Source of the DNA: Succinivibrionaceae bacterium
GTDB taxonomy: Bacteria; Pseudomonadota; Gammaproteobacteria; Enterobacterales; Succinivibrionaceae
DNA length: 64,000 nt
Direction: 5' to 3'
NCBI GenBank assembly: GCA_019420905.1
Contig: JAHZGH010000010.1
Location: 2,332 to 66,331, forward strand
The notes beneath the pieces were generated by a model. It was not told the DNA's origin and searched no databases. It was given only the letters and a program-made list of their open reading frames with translations. Below are positions 31,090-39,102 of this stretch, piece after piece (positions within the stretch are counted from its first letter, which is position 1; every line of letters begins with the position of its first letter). Both the position numbers and the translations under genes were made by a program.

Positions 31090-31706
31090 AGCTCGAAGAT
31101 GTTTATAAATATAAAGCTCTGATTTTCGATTTAGACGGCACATTGGTCGATTCAGAACCTTGTCACCTAAAAGCCTGGCTAGAAGTACTTGCTAAATACA
31201 ACCTGCCGCCTATGGATCTCAATTATATGCAAAAAGTCGGCGGCATCAGTACTTATAAAATATGTGAAATGTACTGTCGTGAGCATCATAGACCAGAACT
31301 TGATACTAAAAGCATTTCTTTAGAAAAGATTACACTGTATAAGAAAAAATATATGCAGCAAGTAAGCGTCCATCCATATATAGCATCAATCTTGTGTGAA
31401 GCTCACGATAAAGGAATCAAAACTGCTGTAGCTACCGGTTCTCAATTACCAGAAACCGAATTCTTGCTCAAAAAGCACAATCTTTTAGATAAAATTGACA
31501 CTATTGTTTCATCAGACCAAGTCTCACATTGTAAACCAGCTCCAGATACTTATCTGCTAGCTTCAAGACGATTAGCTACCGTTCCTTCACAATGCTTGGT
31601 ATTTGAGGACACTAATATAGGCCTTCAGGGTATTAAAGCTGCAGGCATGACAGCCGTACAGGTTTTTGAAGGAAAAATCATCTCTGATTTTATCGTTGCG
31701 GAATAA
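31083..31706 (+). CDS. HAD-superfamily hydrolase (beta-phosphoglucomutase/YqaB-like sugar phosphatase)
   Basis: FDLDGTLVDSEP motif I, ATGS motif II and K...FEDTNIG motif III. An AGGAGGAG RBS lies 6 nt upstream of the ATG at 31083. Confidence 0.8.
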   Translation: MLKLEDVYKYKALIFDLDGTLVDSEPCHLKAWLEVLAKYNLPPMDLNYMQKVGGISTYKICEMYCREHHRPELDTKSISLEKITLYKKKYMQQVSVHPYIASILCEAHDKGIKTAVATGSQLPETEFLLKKHNLLDKIDTIVSSDQVSHCKPAPDTYLLASRRLATVPSQCLVFEDTNIGLQGIKAAGMTAVQVFEGKIISDFIVAE

Positions 31707-31708
31707 TC

Positions 31709-31745
31709 AAAAAAATAACCTTCATTTTTGAAGGTTATTTTTTTA
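31709..31745. terminator. bidirectional terminator between the HAD gene and the aldo-keto reductase gene
   Basis: ATAACCTTCA-TTTT-TGAAGGTTAT flanked by an A-run and a T-run. Confidence 0.8.
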
Positions 31746-31751
31746 TATTAC

Positions 31752-32621
31752 CTAAGCTTCTTCAACTAACTTTGGACTTAGCTCAGCAGGTCTGTTATCT
31801 ATTTTATCAGGATCGTAATTACGTCTTTCATTACTATTCATATCGGAAATAATTTCCAAATCCTGTAAAGAAAGATCAAAATCATAAAGCTTGGAATTTA
31901 GTAAAATCCGCTCAGGATGTACTGATTTAGGAATAACCGCTATACCTCTTTGAATATCCCAGCGCAAAATAGCTTGCGAAGGCTTAATCTTATAATAATT
32001 ACAAATGCCGATTAATCGAGGATCGTCTACCAAAAGCCTTCCTTCGCCTCCCAAAGGAGAATAAGCTTCCATCAGGATATTCTTTTTACGGCAATAGGCT
32101 AGCAGCTCCTCCTCTGTGTTTACTGGATGAATTTCCATCTGATTTACCTGAGGGATTGTTGTAGCTCCAGCTTTCTCTAATGCTTCTAAATGATGGATCT
32201 TAAAATTAGAAACTCCTATCGCACGGCATAATCCTTCTTTTTGTAGCTTTTCAAGCTCTATATAAGCTTTTTCAAAACCTTTAAACGGCCAATGCAGCAA
32301 AAATAAATCGACATAATCTAAACCTAAACGCTCAAGCGAGCCTAAAAGGCCTGCTCGCGGATTTTCCCAATCGGTTTTCCACAATTTAGTAGTTACAAAA
32401 ATTTTATCTCGACTTATACCGCTATCGGCTATGCCTCTGCCTACACTTTTTTCGTTGCAGTAAGCTCGCGCCGTATCCAGCATACGATATCCGTATTCTA
32501 AAGCACATCTTACAGCCTGACGAGCAACTTCTCCTGATGGAGTATGAAATAAGCCCAAACCTAATAAAGGCATCTTGACGCCGTTATTTAAGGTTACAGT
32601 AGAATCAATCGTAAGCTTCAT
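31752..32621 (-). CDS. aldo/keto reductase (DkgA-like)
   Basis: AKR fold motifs LDTARAY, FVTTKLW and LLHWP, plus C-terminal IPKS. Confidence 0.88.
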   Translation of the reverse strand: MKLTIDSTVTLNNGVKMPLLGLGLFHTPSGEVARQAVRCALEYGYRMLDTARAYCNEKSVGRGIADSGISRDKIFVTTKLWKTDWENPRAGLLGSLERLGLDYVDLFLLHWPFKGFEKAYIELEKLQKEGLCRAIGVSNFKIHHLEALEKAGATTIPQVNQMEIHPVNTEEELLAYCRKKNILMEAYSPLGGEGRLLVDDPRLIGICNYYKIKPSQAILRWDIQRGIAVIPKSVHPERILLNSKLYDFDLSLQDLEIISDMNSNERRNYDPDKIDNRPAELSPKLVEEA

Positions 32622-32726
32622 AAATAAATCAGCGTAAAATTCAAAAGAATCTACGCCCCTCCTTTTTATTTTAGCAATATATGTTAAGTGCTGCCCAAGG
32701 CTCTAATTTATATAAACTATATTTTT

Positions 32727-33713
32727 TTAGGCATCTTTCATTACTTTATATGCTTCAAGCAGTAAATTAGGATTAGCTTTGCTTTTATGCATATTCAGCG
32801 ACAAATACTGCCTGTAACGCCGAGCCCCATGACAGCCGTTAAATAAATTTAAAACATGCATAGCCATATGATGAAGCTTATGCCCTTCAGAAACAAACTG
32901 CTCACACAGCTCAGCGGTTTCATAAAGAACCCTTTCGCGGCTCTTTACCTCACTTTTATCATTGAAAATTTGAGAATCGACATAGGCTAAAAGATATGGA
33001 TTATCAATAATAGCGCGTCCTAACATCACAGCATCGACCTTTTGTAGCTGCTTAAGACAATCATCAATAGTTAAAAGACCACCATTGATTGTTATATAAA
33101 GATCTGGGAACAATTCCTTCATTGCATAGACGCGTTCATAATTAAGAGGCGGTACTGAGCGATTTTCCTTAGGAGATAATCCGTTTAGCCAAGCTTTACG
33201 TGCATGCAGAATAATGTGGCGGCAGCCGCTTGCATAAATGGTCTTAACGATCTTTAAGGTATCTTCAAAAGAATCATTCTCATCAACGCCAATACGCGTC
33301 TTAACCGTAACTGGGATCTTGACCTGAGATTGCATTTTTTCACAAGCTTCGGCAATAACTTCCGGGGTTTTCATCAAAACAGCACCAAAAGAGCCGCTTT
33401 GAACCTTGTCTGAAGGGCACCCTGCATTTAAGTTAATCGCGCTGTAACCAAAGTCTTCGCCGATTTTAGCTGCTAAAGCAAGTTTTTGAGGATCACTTCC
33501 GCCTAATTGCAAAACACAAGGCAATTCTGCTTTATCATATGCAATCAAATTAAGCTTGCCATGAACTAAAGCCTCAGCAGCAATCATTTCCGTATATAAC
33601 ATCGATCTCTTAGTTAAGATACGAGCAAAACGTCTAAAAGCTGAGGTTGTAACATCGATCATAGGCGCGACCGCAAAACGATCGGACCGAAAATTTAAAC
33701 TTATATCAGACAT
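32727..33713 (-). CDS. dusA: tRNA-dihydrouridine synthase A
   Basis: APMIDVT N-terminal motif and the catalytic-Cys motif NLNAGCPSDKVQSG. Length and C-terminal helical domain are typical of DusA. Confidence 0.92.
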   Translation of the reverse strand: MSDISLNFRSDRFAVAPMIDVTTSAFRRFARILTKRSMLYTEMIAAEALVHGKLNLIAYDKAELPCVLQLGGSDPQKLALAAKIGEDFGYSAINLNAGCPSDKVQSGSFGAVLMKTPEVIAEACEKMQSQVKIPVTVKTRIGVDENDSFEDTLKIVKTIYASGCRHIILHARKAWLNGLSPKENRSVPPLNYERVYAMKELFPDLYITINGGLLTIDDCLKQLQKVDAVMLGRAIIDNPYLLAYVDSQIFNDKSEVKSRERVLYETAELCEQFVSEGHKLHHMAMHVLNLFNGCHGARRYRQYLSLNMHKSKANPNLLLEAYKVMKDA

Positions 33714-33716
33714 TAT

Positions 33717-34958
33717 TTAGGCAATATTCAGCATTTTAGCACAAGATGAGTCTAGCCATTTTGGATTGAATATCGGTAATTCTTCAGTTAATGATTTTAC
33801 TAATGAATTTAATTCCTTATATTTTTCATCACTTGGATTTTGCAAGAAAGTTCCTACATTACGGCCTAAAGCAATTAAACTTTCCTCATCTAGGCCTCTA
33901 GTAGTAACGGGCAAGGTTGAAAAACGTACGGCCTCATACTTAACATCAGAATAAGCCGTAAGCATATTGCAAATGCGAACGCCAATACCTAACTCTGCAA
34001 GTAGTTCCTGAGCTCCTCGTGCAGATAATGCGCAATTACGAGTATCAATCATTACCAAGTGAGATTGCGGCTCTCCGCAGAAAATCTTCATGCCGCCTTC
34101 AGTAAGTCCTAAAGCAAAACCCTTGGCATTTTTTATCACAGCCTGAGCATACTCTTTATGCAGAGGCTTAGACATCTCGTGCATACGCATCGCTAAAGCA
34201 GCCAGTTGTGGCGTCATTAAACCACGATGTCCTGAAGTCTGATTAGCCCTATCTATGACATTGGCAATTTTATTAGTAGATAAAATCACTGCAGCTTGTG
34301 GTCCCTGCATAGAACCATGAGAGCTAAAAGTAACAACATCAGCAAAAGGAACCGGACTTTTCATTGCTCCTGCGGCAATTAGGGATGCATTCTGAGAAAT
34401 ATCACACCATAAAATAGCTCCGCATGACTTTGCTATTTCTGACAAACGCTCATAATCAATATCTAATGGATAATTAATTGGAGAGATGATAATAAGATGA
34501 GGCTTGCACTGTTTAGCCTGTCTCTCTACAGCATCCATATCTAAAACTTGAGTTGAAGGATCTACACCGAAATTAACAAAGCGATACACCAAATTTTCAC
34601 TGTTGCAATGCTCTTTTTTACGCAGATCTAGAGACATTACAACATCTCCTCTTGAGGCTAACGCTTGAAATACTACACGTGAGGCAGCTTCAATGGATAC
34701 TGTGCGAATATTCGCTCTTTGAGCACCAAATAATTCACAAATACGCTTGCAAGTTAAAGATTCCAAACTTTCAGAACGATTTAAAATAAGATTTTCTGTA
34801 AAATTTACAAGAATATCTCCCATTAAAGAAGCACTTATAGGAGATGTTGCATTCTCGTCAGGAATAAATGACAAGCTGTGCTCTTGTCTTGATAATGCAT
34901 TCTTAAAAAAACCGTATAATTCTTTGTCAAAATTTTCAAGCAAACAAAGCGGATTCAT
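33717..34958 (-). CDS. serine hydroxymethyltransferase-like protein lacking the PLP-binding lysine
   Basis: Collinear with GlyA: SPVPFADVVTFSSHGSMQGPQAAVIL versus [26 protein letters not shown]. Gly (codon 34314-34316) occupies the Schiff-base Lys position. Confidence 0.8.
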   Translation of the reverse strand: MNPLCLLENFDKELYGFFKNALSRQEHSLSFIPDENATSPISASLMGDILVNFTENLILNRSESLESLTCKRICELFGAQRANIRTVSIEAASRVVFQALASRGDVVMSLDLRKKEHCNSENLVYRFVNFGVDPSTQVLDMDAVERQAKQCKPHLIIISPINYPLDIDYERLSEIAKSCGAILWCDISQNASLIAAGAMKSPVPFADVVTFSSHGSMQGPQAAVILSTNKIANVIDRANQTSGHRGLMTPQLAALAMRMHEMSKPLHKEYAQAVIKNAKGFALGLTEGGMKIFCGEPQSHLVMIDTRNCALSARGAQELLAELGIGVRICNMLTAYSDVKYEAVRFSTLPVTTRGLDEESLIALGRNVGTFLQNPSDEKYKELNSLVKSLTEELPIFNPKWLDSSCAKMLNIA

Positions 34959-35048
34959 AAATTTTCCTTAGGCAACTCTTAAATTAAAGATTTAAGAAAA
35001 TTATAACAAATAGTAAAACAAAACCATAAGTTACAGATCTCGTTACAT

Positions 35049-35078
35049 AAAAAAACATTGACCTGCAGCAAATGCAGG
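35049..35078 (-). terminator. terminator downstream of the anion permease gene
   Basis: CCTGCA-GCAAA-TGCAGG stem. On the minus strand it is followed by ...TGTTTTTTT. Confidence 0.5.
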
Positions 35079-35088
35079 CCAATTGAAT

Positions 35089-36351
35089 TTAGAACTCCCA
35101 CACATTAGGAACTATCAAAACGCATAATATAAACGAGATTATGCATAGTGGCAGGCCAACCTTAATATAATCCATAAAATGCAGTCCTGCCGGACTCATA
35201 ATAATAGTATTTGGAGGAGTAGCTACAGGAGTTGCAAAAGAACAGGAAGCGGCTATCGTAATCGCCATTGTTACGGCGTGCGGAGAAATCTGTAATTTTT
35301 CTGAAATCGAAAAGCCTATCGGAATCAATAATGCTGCTGTTGCTGTATTCGGCATAAATTGAGTTAAGCCGCACGAAATTAAAAATAGCACTGACATCAT
35401 AACTAAATCAGAGGGAGTGTCTCCCATCACAGCAATAACTGCATTAGCTACCATTTCTCCTGCCCCAGTTTGCTCCAATGCTGTTGCTAAAGGCAACATT
35501 CCTGCAAATAAGAAAATAGTAGTCCAATCAATTCCATGATAAGCCTGCTTTTCTGTAATGCAGCGAGTAAGCACACATAAAAGAGCTCCTGATACAGCAA
35601 CCATTGCTGGAGTCAATCCAGGAATGCCTATAATAAGACCGCCTACAACATAAGCTAAAATAATTAAAGCTAAAATACGTTGTCTCTTTGAACCTATAGC
35701 AATATGTCCTGAATCATCTTCCATAATTGAAGTATCGACTAAATGCTTAGGTAAGATTTTGCGGCCAATATAAAGCATAAACAGCATACTGGCAATAGCG
35801 ATCGGCCCGCCGATAATTGCAAACTCAAAGAAGCCGAAAGGCTCAAATCCAGCATTCTCTAAAGCAGCTACAGCCAGCATATTAGGAGGAGTTCCAACCA
35901 TGGTCAAATTACATCCCGTATTAGCTGCAACAGCTAAAGCCATTAATAAAGCTGCAGCCGGGATATTAGCTGATAGACACAATCCTAAAACCATCGGCAT
36001 TAAGCAGGCCACAGTTCCTGTATTTGATGCAAAAGCTGACATAAAAATCGTAACTCCCATTAAAGCTGCCATCAAAGGAAACTCCTGAGTACCGACTTTA
36101 TCAACCACATATTTGCCCACACTCTGCGCTAAGCCAGAATCAAGCATGGCCGCGCCGACTACAAACATACCTGCAAATAAAATCACGGTCGGATTCGAAA
36201 AGCCTGCAAAGCAATCCGATACAGACAAAATTCCGCAAATTGTTAAGCTTACAGAAGCCGTCATGGCTGTAACTGCAATTGGAATTAGCTCTGTAATAAA
36301 TAAAAAGGCAACTACGGCTAACACTATTAAAGTAACAACGGCAGGATCCAT
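35089..36351 (-). CDS. anion permease of the ArsB/NhaD-CitMHS/SLC13 superfamily
   Basis: 420 aa polytopic membrane protein. The N-terminus (VVTLIVLAVVAFLFITELIPIAVTAM) and repeat architecture are typical of the citrate-transporter-like family. Confidence 0.72.
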   Translation of the reverse strand: MDPAVVTLIVLAVVAFLFITELIPIAVTAMTASVSLTICGILSVSDCFAGFSNPTVILFAGMFVVGAAMLDSGLAQSVGKYVVDKVGTQEFPLMAALMGVTIFMSAFASNTGTVACLMPMVLGLCLSANIPAAALLMALAVAANTGCNLTMVGTPPNMLAVAALENAGFEPFGFFEFAIIGGPIAIASMLFMLYIGRKILPKHLVDTSIMEDDSGHIAIGSKRQRILALIILAYVVGGLIIGIPGLTPAMVAVSGALLCVLTRCITEKQAYHGIDWTTIFLFAGMLPLATALEQTGAGEMVANAVIAVMGDTPSDLVMMSVLFLISCGLTQFMPNTATAALLIPIGFSISEKLQISPHAVTMAITIAASCSFATPVATPPNTIIMSPAGLHFMDYIKVGLPLCIISFILCVLIVPNVWEF

Positions 36352-36530
36352 AAATTACTCCTAAAGCAATTTTGCATAAAAGTATCTATCTAAAATCTAG
36401 TAGATTTTTTTTTAATTTCCTATATTTAACTAAATATTGTGAATCAAGGCATAATCTTGTTATTAAACTTTGGTTATATATTTTTTTTATGCGATAATAC
36501 TGAGTCGAGACCTTATGGAAGCATATAACT

Positions 36531-36785
36531 ATGACCCCTCTTTTAAAGATCCTTCTTGGATTTGCAGTCTGCTTATTAACAACTTTTATATTTCGCTTCG
36601 CTATAGGAAACAACCGTGATCTGCACTTTAAAAGATCTATGCCTAAAAGCTTTCTTAACTTAAGGACCCCCATCGCTTTATATTTTTCTTTAGGCTATCC
36701 AGTGACCGCTAAAGGCTATGCCCTCTTAGGAATATTATTATTGATTTTATGGCTTGAGATTAGCTGTATAGCTTATTTGCTCTGA
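36531..36785 (+). CDS. hypothetical small membrane protein (84 aa, 2 predicted TM helices)
   Basis: Hydrophobic helices at both ends with a basic loop between them. A GGAAG lies about 10 nt upstream of the ATG. I know of no homology. Confidence 0.35.
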   Translation: MTPLLKILLGFAVCLLTTFIFRFAIGNNRDLHFKRSMPKSFLNLRTPIALYFSLGYPVTAKGYALLGILLLILWLEISCIAYLL

Positions 36786-37069
36786 TAAAATAAAAAGCTA
36801 ATAAATTTAGTTAATCACTTTTATCTAAAAAACTGCATATAATTTATTTGTCTTATATCTGCATAAAATAAAATTATTCTAAAAAGCTTCGATAAAGCTT
36901 CATGTTTTTATAAAACTCTAATATAAAAATTTGAGACTGTGCACAAAATAGATCCTTTTAACAAAATTCCCCCTAATTTACCCTCTATTTACTTTAAATA
37001 AAGAGCTATTTGTGAGATAATGATTACATAGTTTTTGCTTACTCAAAAAATATATTATTTCTATAATAA

Positions 37070-37099
37070 GCTGCCATAAAAAGGCGGCCTTTATTTTTA
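37070..37099 (+). terminator. terminator-like hairpin upstream of the M23 peptidase gene
   Basis: GCTGCC-ATAAAAA-GGCGGC (one G-U pair) followed by CTTTATTTTTAT. Confidence 0.35.
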
Positions 37100-37176
37100 T
37101 GGAGAAGTCGGTTTTATTAGTTGGCATCGTAAATCATTAAGCGTTGGCAGCCTCTTAACCGTTTATAAATTTACGT

Positions 37177-39102
37177 ATGTTGAAGATAAAGACTAGTTCA
37201 AAAACCATTAAAGAAGACTATGTTGCTACAGATGCTGCAACAGGAATTACAGCCATTTCTGGACGCCATGTTATTGGCATTATCTCTGTATGCATTATTT
37301 CTATTATCTTAGCTCTTCCTTACGGAAAACTTATTCCTAATACCTCATCACCTCTACTTTCTATAATTTCAGAACAGGAGCAAATTAATCGTTCTCGTCA
37401 GGAAAAATATTTAACTGCTAATGAGCAGGATATTGCAGAAAATATCGAAATTGCCTCAACTGCAGGTTCTGAGGAAAACTATGATGATATGGATGTTCCT
37501 AAAAACATCCTAGCTAACACATCTAACGAAGAAAGCTCAGAATTTGAAAATTCTGGTGCTTTAGATGATTATGTCACTCCTACAACTGTTTTACGCCAGC
37601 GCTTTGAAAGCCTACAAGGCAATCTTGCCGCAAACAGCGTCTCTGATAAAGACACCAAAGTTCAAAGGATCCCAGAATCAGAACAATTAAGCAAGCTTAA
37701 TAAGATCCAAGATCTTATGGCTCTAAAAAATACCAATATTGAAAATTCATTAATTGAAAATATCTTAAATACAGATTCTCAAGCCTTACTAGAAGCAGAA
37801 ATTAAGAATAATAAGAGCATGCGCCCAAATGGCACCTGGTATCAGCAGACTGTTCATAAGGGCGACACCTTTTCGCAGATTTTTAGCTACTTGAATCTGC
37901 CTTACGCTACTTTAAAGAAGATCACTGCTGTTGCTAAAAAAACTGACCTGAGGCTTAATACCGGCGAAGTTTTGCAGTTTTTAATTGATAAAGAGAATAT
38001 TGTTCTTGAGCTGGTTAAGCCTCTTAGTGAAAATACACAGGTTCGCTTTACTCGCATGAGTGCCGATGATAAATTTACGGCAGTTTATGAAAAGACCAAT
38101 TCTCATATTAAGGATCCTCAGTCCATTTCAAAATTTGCTAATGCCGATCAAATGCCTTTAGCTAAAGAGGCTGCTGCTGAACGTAAAAAACAAGAAGAAT
38201 TGTTAGCTGCAGCTAAAGCTCAGGAGCAGTTACGTGCTCAAAAAGAAGCTGCTTTACTTTTAGAGCAGGAAAAAGCTTTAGAGAAGCATCTGGCTGAAAA
38301 TTTAAAAACCCGTCCGCGTCTTGTATTAGGCATGCTCAGAGACAAAGAAACCTTTGAAAAAGCCGCTAACAGATCTGGCTTAACCAAAACAGAAATTGCT
38401 ACAATCAAACAAAACTTCAGTGGCAAAATTAATTTCAAGCGTCTATGCTCTGGTGATTCTTTCCGTATTCTAACAGATAAAATCGGAACTCGCGGTAATA
38501 TTACCGCCATGGAAATTATTTCAGCCCATGACGGCCGCGTTATTCTATATAGAAATCCAAATAATCGAGCTTTCTATGAAGAAAATGAATACCAGCCATC
38601 TGCAGGGGCTTTCCGCCGTTTTCCTATCACAGGAAAAATCAAAGTTAATTCTCCATTCAATCCGCGCCGTATGCATCCTATACGCCGCAAAATTGTTCCG
38701 CATTGGGGTGTAGATTTTAAAGTTAGCGTTGGAACTCCTGTTTATGCTCCAGCAGATGGTACTGTAAAATTTGCTGGCTTTATGCGTGGTGGTGGTTACG
38801 TAGTTATCCTCAATCACAAAGGAGGCTACTCTACAGTTTATATGCACTTATCAAAGTTCGATGTAAAAAAAGGACAAAAAGTACACATGGGACAAGTTAT
38901 TGCCAAATCAGGCAATACGGGCTACTCTACAGGGGCTCACTTACATTACGAATTGCATATAAATGGCAGAGCTGTTGATCCGCTTAAAGCAGATCTGCCC
39001 TCGGGCAATAAGGCTACAGCTAAAGCTTTACGCAGACAATTTGAAAGTACTGTTGCGATTTTAAAGAGTGATCTTTATAAGAGCAGTCTTGCTTCTAGAT
39101 AA
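37177..39102 (+). CDS. murein DD-endopeptidase, M23 family with OapA/LysM-like domain (MepM/YebA-like)
   Basis: N-terminal TM helix, LysM/OapA-like segment HKGDTFSQIFSYLNLPYATLKKI and a coiled-coil linker. M23 motifs HWGVDF and GNTGYSTGAHLHYE are present. Confidence 0.85.
   Translation: MLKIKTSSKTIKEDYVATDAATGITAISGRHVIGIISVCIISIILALPYGKLIPNTSSPLLSIISEQEQINRSRQEKYLTANEQDIAENIEIASTAGSEENYDDMDVPKNILANTSNEESSEFENSGALDDYVTPTTVLRQRFESLQGNLAANSVSDKDTKVQRIPESEQLSKLNKIQDLMALKNTNIENSLIENILNTDSQALLEAEIKNNKSMRPNGTWYQQTVHKGDTFSQIFSYLNLPYATLKKITAVAKKTDLRLNTGEVLQFLIDKENIVLELVKPLSENTQVRFTRMSADDKFTAVYEKTNSHIKDPQSISKFANADQMPLAKEAAAERKKQEELLAAAKAQEQLRAQKEAALLLEQEKALEKHLAENLKTRPRLVLGMLRDKETFEKAANRSGLTKTEIATIKQNFSGKINFKRLCSGDSFRILTDKIGTRGNITAMEIISAHDGRVILYRNPNNRAFYEENEYQPSAGAFRRFPITGKIKVNSPFNPRRMHPIRRKIVPHWGVDFKVSVGTPVYAPADGTVKFAGFMRGGGYVVILNHKGGYSTVYMHLSKFDVKKGQKVHMGQVIAKSGNTGYSTGAHLHYELHINGRAVDPLKADLPSGNKATAKALRRQFESTVAILKSDLYKSSLASR

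Follow-up and report, generated by a model that had tools for sequence, protein, structure and literature searches.

Serine hydroxymethyltransferases and their lysine-less homologues

Serine hydroxymethyltransferase (SHMT, GlyA) is among the best-studied enzymes that depend on pyridoxal 5'-phosphate (PLP). Its active site is assembled across the dimer interface, and its phosphate cup is made of Ser97-Gly98-Ser99 plus Tyr55' and Gly262'-Gly263' of the other subunit. The fold-type-I dehydratases ColD and E1 have the PLP lysine replaced by histidine and depend on pyridoxamine 5'-phosphate, and LCB1 is a subunit of serine palmitoyltransferase that lacks this lysine. A different kind of arrangement is that of the GlnK-AmtB type, where a soluble ligand-sensing protein is encoded beside its transporter. 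In Arabidopsis the nuclear SHMT homologue MSA1/SHM7 has a biological role although no SHM activity is seen in vitro (PMC5021336). The subject here is an SHMT-like protein of 413 amino acids (aa) without the Schiff-base lysine, encoded between an anion transporter gene and dusA in a stretch of 64,000 nucleotides (nt), called the window below, from contig JAHZGH010000010.1 of a Succinivibrionaceae bacterium (assembly GCA_019420905.1).

An SHMT fold without the Schiff-base lysine

The gene and the codon found at the position of the catalytic lysine are located as follows.

33717..34958, minus strand: 413-aa protein with the SHMT fold but no Schiff-base lysine, of the tail-less type within its family (profiles, alignments, AlphaFold2 (AF2) model and Foldseek)
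34314..34316, minus strand: codon GGT for Gly215, which stands where Lys229 of E. coli SHMT forms the Schiff base with PLP (alignment and codon reading)

The protein matches the Pfam SHMT profile PF00464 from one end to the other, scoring 180 bits (E 7e-53) and covering profile positions 1-394 of 399. Its score against the NCBIfam SHMT model NF000586 is 223.1 bits, under the curated cut-off of 335. HMMER alignments to solved SHMTs place TFSSHGSMQGPQAA opposite the Schiff-base lysine segment, with Gly215 in the place of the lysine. The AF2 model has a pLDDT of 91.2 and a pTM of 0.90 and is uncertain only at the shortened 54-61 loop; its best structural matches in Foldseek are SHMTs with TM scores of 0.86-0.87 (4N0W and 1KKJ at 0.87). 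The protein therefore has the fold and the full-length homology of GlyA but neither the Schiff-base lysine, the phosphate cup, the folate residues nor a score above the NCBIfam cut-off. Among 52 aligned family members the Schiff-base column holds no lysine (33 Gly, 18 Asp and 1 Asn), and further clusters at 50% identity carry Glu, Asn or Ala there.

These results bear out a first-pass annotation of the window, read from the sequence alone, which had described an intact, full-length open reading frame (ORF) collinear with SHMT and glycine in place of its lysine; no alignment put a lysine at the active site. The erosion that it reported in other hallmark segments is real, the protein reading IPDENATSP, VSIEAASR and CDISQ and lacking the YPGKRYYGG loop. 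The canonical glyA that it proposed to look for elsewhere in the genome (2.04 Mb, 15 contigs) is present on another contig, with TTHKSLGGPR and 564 bits, and its product is ~30% identical to the SHMT-like protein. Loss of catalytic residues, purifying selection (see below) and an active-type glyA alongside are the marks of a pseudoenzyme or neofunctionalised paralogue. The protein is almost certainly a selected, non-canonical SHMT paralogue devoid of the PLP lysine.

A remodelled active site

Active-site residues are given in E. coli SHMT numbering, unless stated otherwise, and were tabulated over the 52 family members. The E. coli sequence used reproduces K229, D200, H126, R363, Y55, E57 and Y65 at the right positions. 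His126 (51/52), Asp200 (52/52), Arg363 (52/52), Arg372 (52/52) and Asn37 (47/52) are retained, and Ser35, Gly262 and Asn347 are not conserved. Tyr55 and Glu57 are lost too, together with a deleted loop of ~7 residues that bears Tyr64/65. The phosphate loop is changed, Gly98 being replaced by Ile in 42 members and Ser99 by Glu in 31, while Ser175 is found as Val or Ile, Arg235 as Gln and Lys229 as Gly, Asp or Asn. The six-residue stretch THGSPV of the folate loop H-L-T-H-G-S-P-V is deleted.

With Ile and Glu in the phosphate cup and the trans-subunit contacts lost, canonical PLP binding by the clade is very unlikely, even in non-covalent form, as far as can be read from the sequences. The idea that Lys114 (window numbering) is a migrated catalytic lysine was considered. 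With the phosphate cup blocked, such a lysine is not likely to bring PLP binding back. The first-pass annotation had suggested that the fold could still bind folate. This part of its proposal loses ground, since the loss of Glu57, Tyr64/65 and Asn347 and the deletion of the THGSPV loop make residual folate binding or chemistry unlikely.

Former pocket positions are re-fixed rather than relaxed: Asn102 is replaced by Ser in 50 of the 52 members, Gly125 by Glu in 49, Leu127 by Cys in 48 and His203 by Gln in 51. In window numbering, Arg94, Arg113, Lys114, Tyr163, Trp184 and His244 are invariant in the family, and the new polar residues fixed at former active-site positions are Arg94, Arg113, Lys114, Glu116, Cys118, Tyr163, Gln189 and His244. 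The alignment of the 52 sequences has 32 invariant columns. Such a pocket, conserved, remodelled, positively charged and still with the arginine that binds carboxylate, suggests that the ligand is a small anion of another kind.

Distribution, phylogeny and selection

A search of 5.8 billion proteins retrieved ~85 clusters at 50-96% identity, mostly from Succinivibrio metagenome bins and all with Gly at the lysine column, and a further Selenomonas group at 37-42% identity with Asp in that column. Among 1.84 billion representatives at 50% identity the lysine-less clusters number only about seven, with G, G, E, N, A, D and D at that column, before the canonical Lys-bearing SHMTs start. Maximum-likelihood phylogeny groups the lysine-less proteins in one clade, apart from all Lys-bearing SHMTs, with 100% support in the Shimodaira-Hasegawa-like approximate likelihood-ratio test (SH-aLRT). 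The nearest Lys-bearing sequences are a divergent paralogue of Acidaminococcus hominis (locus L066) and the cluster P0126.

The clade is carried by 67 of 98 Succinivibrionaceae species genomes, in the genera numbered here g1-g6, g8 and g13. Nearly all of these 67 also have a canonical glyA match, and the other nine genera of the family have glyA only. In Selenomonadaceae it occurs in 69 of 151 species genomes, with two or more copies in 22, and canonical glyA is present in all three carrier genomes checked. The family names of genome groups were taken from record titles. Carriers include the rumen S. ruminantium, the oral Selenomonas sp. F0473 and FOBRC6, and Succinivibrio dextrinosolvens DSM 3072. 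The S. dextrinosolvens and S. ruminantium proteins have the accessions WP_078928418.1 and WP_173444173.1. The labels assigned by the prokaryotic genome annotation pipeline (PGAP) are "serine hydroxymethyltransferase" in Selenomonas and "hypothetical protein" in Succinivibrio; as a result, reconstructions of metabolism in the rumen and oral microbiomes overstate one-carbon metabolism.

Pairwise ratios of nonsynonymous to synonymous substitution rates (dN/dS) of the SHMT-like gene are 0.035-0.08, no different from those of dusA and the transporter. The loss of catalytic residues could be taken for the decay of a glyA duplicate without function. This is almost inconceivable: the dN/dS values, the invariant columns, the intact gene in 67 and 69 species genomes of two phyla and the confident fold prediction refute it. 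The protein that the ORF encodes is folded, is under selection and belongs to one clade of proteins with the SHMT fold.

Organisation of the locus

The SHMT-like gene is the second of four minus-strand genes in series, as established from the ORF list and profile searches. The other elements of the locus are listed in order of transcription.

35089..36351, minus strand: anion transporter of the DASS family (SLC13/VcINDY-like), 420 aa (Pfam CitMHS 271 bits, Na_sulph_symp 116 bits)
35047..35083, minus strand: intrinsic-terminator-like hairpin with an 11-pair stem, 5 of the pairs G-C, followed by a T run (sequence reading and terminator scan)
32727..33713, minus strand: dusA, tRNA-dihydrouridine(20/20a) synthase, 328 aa (NF008774, 424.7 bits)
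31752..32621, minus strand: aldo-keto reductase, DkgA-like (Pfam Aldo_ket_red; NF008598 at 241 bits, under its cut-off of 425)

The transporter scores 206.7 bits with TIGR00785 'dass' (cut-off 198.6), and its best solved relative is VcINDY (E 1e-39), a dicarboxylate transporter. The first of its SNT hairpin-tip motifs is present and the second reads PNT (FMPNTATAALL), a position that is SNT in the Selenomonas orthologues. The hairpin is strong and lies between the transporter stop codon and the start of the SHMT-like gene, so that the local transcription unit of the window, as read from the sequence, is probably SHMT-like-dusA. An Rfam scan by E-value of positions 31500-37400 for a riboswitch or leader that would name the ligand gave only three sub-threshold chance matches.

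The aldo-keto reductase gene closes an arrangement conserved in Succinivibrionaceae. In a close relative at 76% identity (L003:10079-10477 and L004:9986-10384) a 132-aa ORF with a reverse-transcriptase domain (RVT_1) lies between the aldo-keto reductase and HAD genes; the matching interval in the window is only ~45 bp.

Linkage to anion transporters

An anion transporter gene directly upstream, of DASS type in the window, is the neighbour that recurs in both families, and both phyla, that carry the clade. Thirty Selenomonadaceae loci from 30 species were compared, and a transporter gene is directly adjacent in 29 of them. This neighbour is a 477-aa DASS in 11 loci, in 8 it is an orthologue of the 420-aa DASS of the window (DASS420; 50-57% identity), and the other 10 have a membrane protein of 471 aa. 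Adjacency is thus kept across distant lineages and three transporter classes. The same pairing occurs in metagenomic contigs of three further lineages, with gaps of 15-35 nt. A close DASS420 orthologue (at least 73% identity) is found in 39 Selenomonadaceae genomes, 35 of which have the SHMT-like gene. Within Succinivibrionaceae the genera with the paralogue also have the DASS orthologue, g8 excepted, and the genera without the paralogue all lack it.

Downstream of the SHMT-like gene, five of 12 S. ruminantium-type loci have larB as the next gene (L058:9454-11431; L142-L145). The presence of larC beside larB was confirmed in L058; the two are nickel-pincer cofactor genes.

Linkage to dusA

In the window the TAA stop codon of the SHMT-like gene is followed by ATA and then by the ATG of dusA, which is the 3-nt, same-strand junction reported in the first-pass annotation. 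No obvious Shine-Dalgarno sequence precedes the dusA start. DusA is apparently normal, as had also been stated: it passes the equivalog model NF008774 above the cut-off of 269 bits and has the NLNAGCPS motif with its cysteine.

The linkage is conserved among relatives, so that a lack of it in any relative, named in the first-pass annotation as a refutation, is not what the genomes show. In all 64 Succinivibrionaceae genomes that could be assessed, dusA follows the SHMT-like gene in the same orientation, at 400 bp or less in 53 and at 0.6-2.9 kb in 11; the remaining three carrier genomes are fragmented assemblies with dusA on another contig. The stop-to-start gap is 10 nt or less, or the genes overlap, in 19 of 37 loci. 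The larger distances are those of genus g2 and part of g5, and some lineages have inserted DNA between the two genes, such as a ROK-family gene fragment in L067. The DusA proteins from linked loci group together in a single clade (99% support), which makes the linkage one evolutionary event. In genera without the paralogue dusA is preceded by an unrelated Sel1-repeat gene, and no DusA match was found beside the SHMT-like gene in the 30 Selenomonadaceae loci. The linkage is confined to Succinivibrionaceae. One contig labelled 'Firmicutes bacterium CAG:534' (L064) has the order DASS-SHMT-like-dusA-aldo-keto reductase, with a DusA identical to that of the Succinivibrionaceae locus L022, and is probably misbinned or mislabelled. 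The cassette was also considered as the remnant of an integrative element targeting dusA. A search around it for an att-like direct repeat of the 5' end of dusA found none, and there is no integrase among the ORFs of the window; the idea is without support.

The SHMT-like protein might work with DusA in Succinivibrionaceae, for example as a co-translated tRNA-binding or specificity subunit. Such a role would fit the constancy of dusA downstream, which holds even where the transporter has moved away, the tight or overlapping junctions, the missing Shine-Dalgarno sequence and the precedent of human SHMT1, which binds RNA. It is nonetheless improbable. The linkage has a single origin, the two genes are 0.6-2.9 kb apart in g2 and part of g5, with a ROK-family fragment in one gap, and in Selenomonadaceae the clade does well without a neighbouring dusA. 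DusA itself is an ordinary, equivalog-level member of its family that stands behind an unrelated gene where the paralogue is missing. An RNA-binding surface finds no support in the SHMT-like family, which is acidic (isoelectric point ~6). What stands of the partnership proposed in the first-pass annotation is the conserved gene order in Succinivibrionaceae; DusA as the defining partner does not, given the one origin and the absence from the Selenomonadaceae loci. The transporter linkage is deep, spans two phyla and survives replacement of the transporter class, whereas that to dusA is shallow but very stable.

C-terminal tails and tandem copies

The family has a C-terminal motif of its own, P-x-F-S-x-E-W, followed in most members by a tail of 25-45 aa. 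Tail class and the class of the neighbouring transporter go together in 36 of 37 loci: a basic ...ERKxxxxKKLF tail goes with DASS420, ...ERMWSFWDN with the 477-aa DASS (DASS477) and ...DLMMKAMxYG with the 471-aa protein.

In oral Selenomonas two lysine-less genes stand in tandem behind one DASS gene (L054:5515-8236; L063:1543-4274; also genomes G110, G189, G232 and G239). The first copy, of 439-446 aa, has the basic C-terminal tail, and the second, of 411 aa, is tail-less. This arrangement suggests a heteromer of two dead subunits.

Tandem copies bear on the idea that the protein is a regulatory pseudo-subunit of canonical GlyA, tuning one-carbon flux as part of a heterodimer in the manner of LCB1 with LCB2 in serine palmitoyltransferase. 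The SHMT active site does span the dimer interface and nearly all carrier genomes have a canonical glyA. An inactive regulatory SHMT homologue is known in plants (MSA1/SHM7; PMC5021336). Yet the protein is only ~30% identical to the GlyA of its own genome and has lost the residues that act in trans (Tyr55, Glu57, Tyr65 and Gly262). The universal presence of glyA makes co-occurrence uninformative, the transporter linkage would be left unexplained, and the tandem lysine-less pairs suggest oligomers among themselves and not with GlyA. A GlyA pseudo-subunit is distinctly improbable.

Proposed function

With a deep transporter linkage and a probable history, given below, in which dusA joined later, the core function of the SHMT-like protein should be sought with the transporter. 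The favoured reading, at about even odds, is that the protein binds a ligand without PLP and is a partner of the transporter, trapping, converting or sensing the organic anion that is carried. It would act in the cytoplasm beside the adjacent transporter, and its remodelled pocket would hold the anion by means of the new Arg and Lys residues and of Arg345 (window numbering), the carboxylate-binding residue that has been kept. The bound anion would then be trapped or converted, or its level reported to the transporter. In the simplest history the transporter-SHMT-like cassette, probably of Negativicutes origin in view of its nearest Lys-bearing relatives, would have come to lie ahead of dusA on a single occasion, in a forebear of one Succinivibrionaceae subclade. 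The dusA gene would then have come to be expressed from, and to depend on, the cassette promoter. Operon capture of this kind would explain the stable gene order and the 3-nt junction without a physical partnership between the SHMT-like protein and DusA.

A broader formulation is more tentative and held with less than even confidence. Here the scaffold of a fold-type-I PLP enzyme would have been turned into a PLP-free cytoplasmic partner of IT-superfamily transporters (DASS, CitMHS-like), either a docking ligand sensor or a cofactor-independent enzyme acting on the transported carboxylate. The class-specific C-terminal helix would dock to the transporter, and the Succinivibrionaceae module would also be wired to dusA expression.

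Several observations weigh against a transporter partner. Within Succinivibrionaceae the adjacency to dusA (64/64) is more stable than that to the transporter (45/63). Of the 63 genomes with the DASS, 45 have it within 3.5 kb upstream and 18 have it far away or on another contig, so that the adjacency was broken repeatedly. About half of the SHMT-like/dusA junctions are tight or overlapping (19/37), and the window has a terminator-like hairpin between the transporter and SHMT-like genes. The 471-aa transporter is only weakly CitMHS-like (27.7 bits against a Pfam cut-off of 31.9). The tail is missing from the window protein (C-terminus at 33717-33780) and from its close relatives, though present in most members of the family, and its co-variation with the transporter is confounded by phylogeny. 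A MinD/FtsA-type amphipathic membrane anchor was considered for the tail; the hydrophobic moment is moderate and barely exceeds that of shuffled sequences (median z 0.73), too weak a signal for such an anchor to be proposed.

The pairing with a transporter could also mean a true enzyme of new chemistry, in which the re-fixed pocket (Lys114, Glu116, His117, Cys118, Asp186 and His244 in window numbering), with a metal or a non-covalent cofactor, would transform the imported anion. A transporter with an enzyme is the commonest type of two-gene module, and ColD and E1 show that fold-type-I proteins can work without the lysine. The near-fixed Glu, Cys and Gln at positions 125, 127 and 203, together with the invariant Lys114, would suit such an activity. 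However, the residue at the lysine position varies freely (G/D/N/E/A), the loci examined have no third gene in common that could mark a pathway, and we know of no PLP-free catalytic fold-type-I protein. This makes a new enzyme rather unlikely.

Among the best-known members of the carrier genera, Succinivibrio make succinate and Selenomonas consume it. The recurrent pairing of the PLP-free partner candidate with DASS-type transporters points to an unstudied step in organic-anion handling. The cultured carriers S. dextrinosolvens DSM 3072 and Selenomonas ruminantium make the question directly testable.

Comparison with known systems

No description of a bacterial lysine-less SHMT clade, of an SHMT-dusA or of an SHMT-DASS module was found in full-text searches of the literature, and a profile search of NCBIfam matched no model dedicated to the SHMT-like protein. 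A pseudoenzyme or repurposed paralogue is a known kind of protein; the clade and its pairing with transporters appear to be undescribed. A widespread and strongly selected clade that drops PLP and folate binding yet re-fixes its pocket would illustrate clearly how an enzyme scaffold can be put to a new use.

Canonical GlyA (EC 2.1.2.1; PF00464; E. coli 1DFO, B. stearothermophilus 1KKJ) has the same full-length fold, ~30% identity and the same His126, Asp200, Arg363 and Arg372. The clade differs by the absence of the Schiff-base lysine, by a phosphate loop changed from SGS to S/T-I-E and by Gln in place of His203. It also lacks the loops with Tyr55, Glu57 and Tyr65 and with THGSPV, and has its own C-terminal P-x-F-S-x-E-W. 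The Lys-bearing paralogues of A. hominis (L066:8001-9242) and P0126 share with it PSPVPYADVVT, the W-V-D strand and a C-terminal P-[LM]-F-[SA]-x-E-W. Unlike the clade, they still have the lysine, the YPGKR loop and GGHLSHG, and their phosphate loop (SGNATIAN or SMSASIAN, at Gly98), Tyr55 and Tyr65 are already altered. By their sequence motifs these two are intermediate between GlyA and the lysine-less clade. The A. fermentans homologue (L099) is of the ordinary glyA type.

MSA1/SHM7, whose structure 7QX8 is among the Foldseek matches of the window model, belongs to a different clade. It is eukaryotic and nuclear, is linked to S-adenosylmethionine and sulphur homeostasis, and has no transporter or dusA context. 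ColD/E1 and LCB1 are precedents that loss of the lysine need not mean loss of function. They differ from the SHMT-like clade in that ColD and E1 keep the phosphate pocket of their cofactor, which is blocked in the clade, and LCB1 pairs with a catalytic paralogue. GlnK has a fold unrelated to that of the SHMT-like protein, and the pairing of the clade with its transporters is one of neighbouring genes. The likeness to GlnK-AmtB is one of analogy, both being conserved two-gene modules that join a transporter with a cytoplasmic protein, in the SHMT-like case a putative binder of small molecules.

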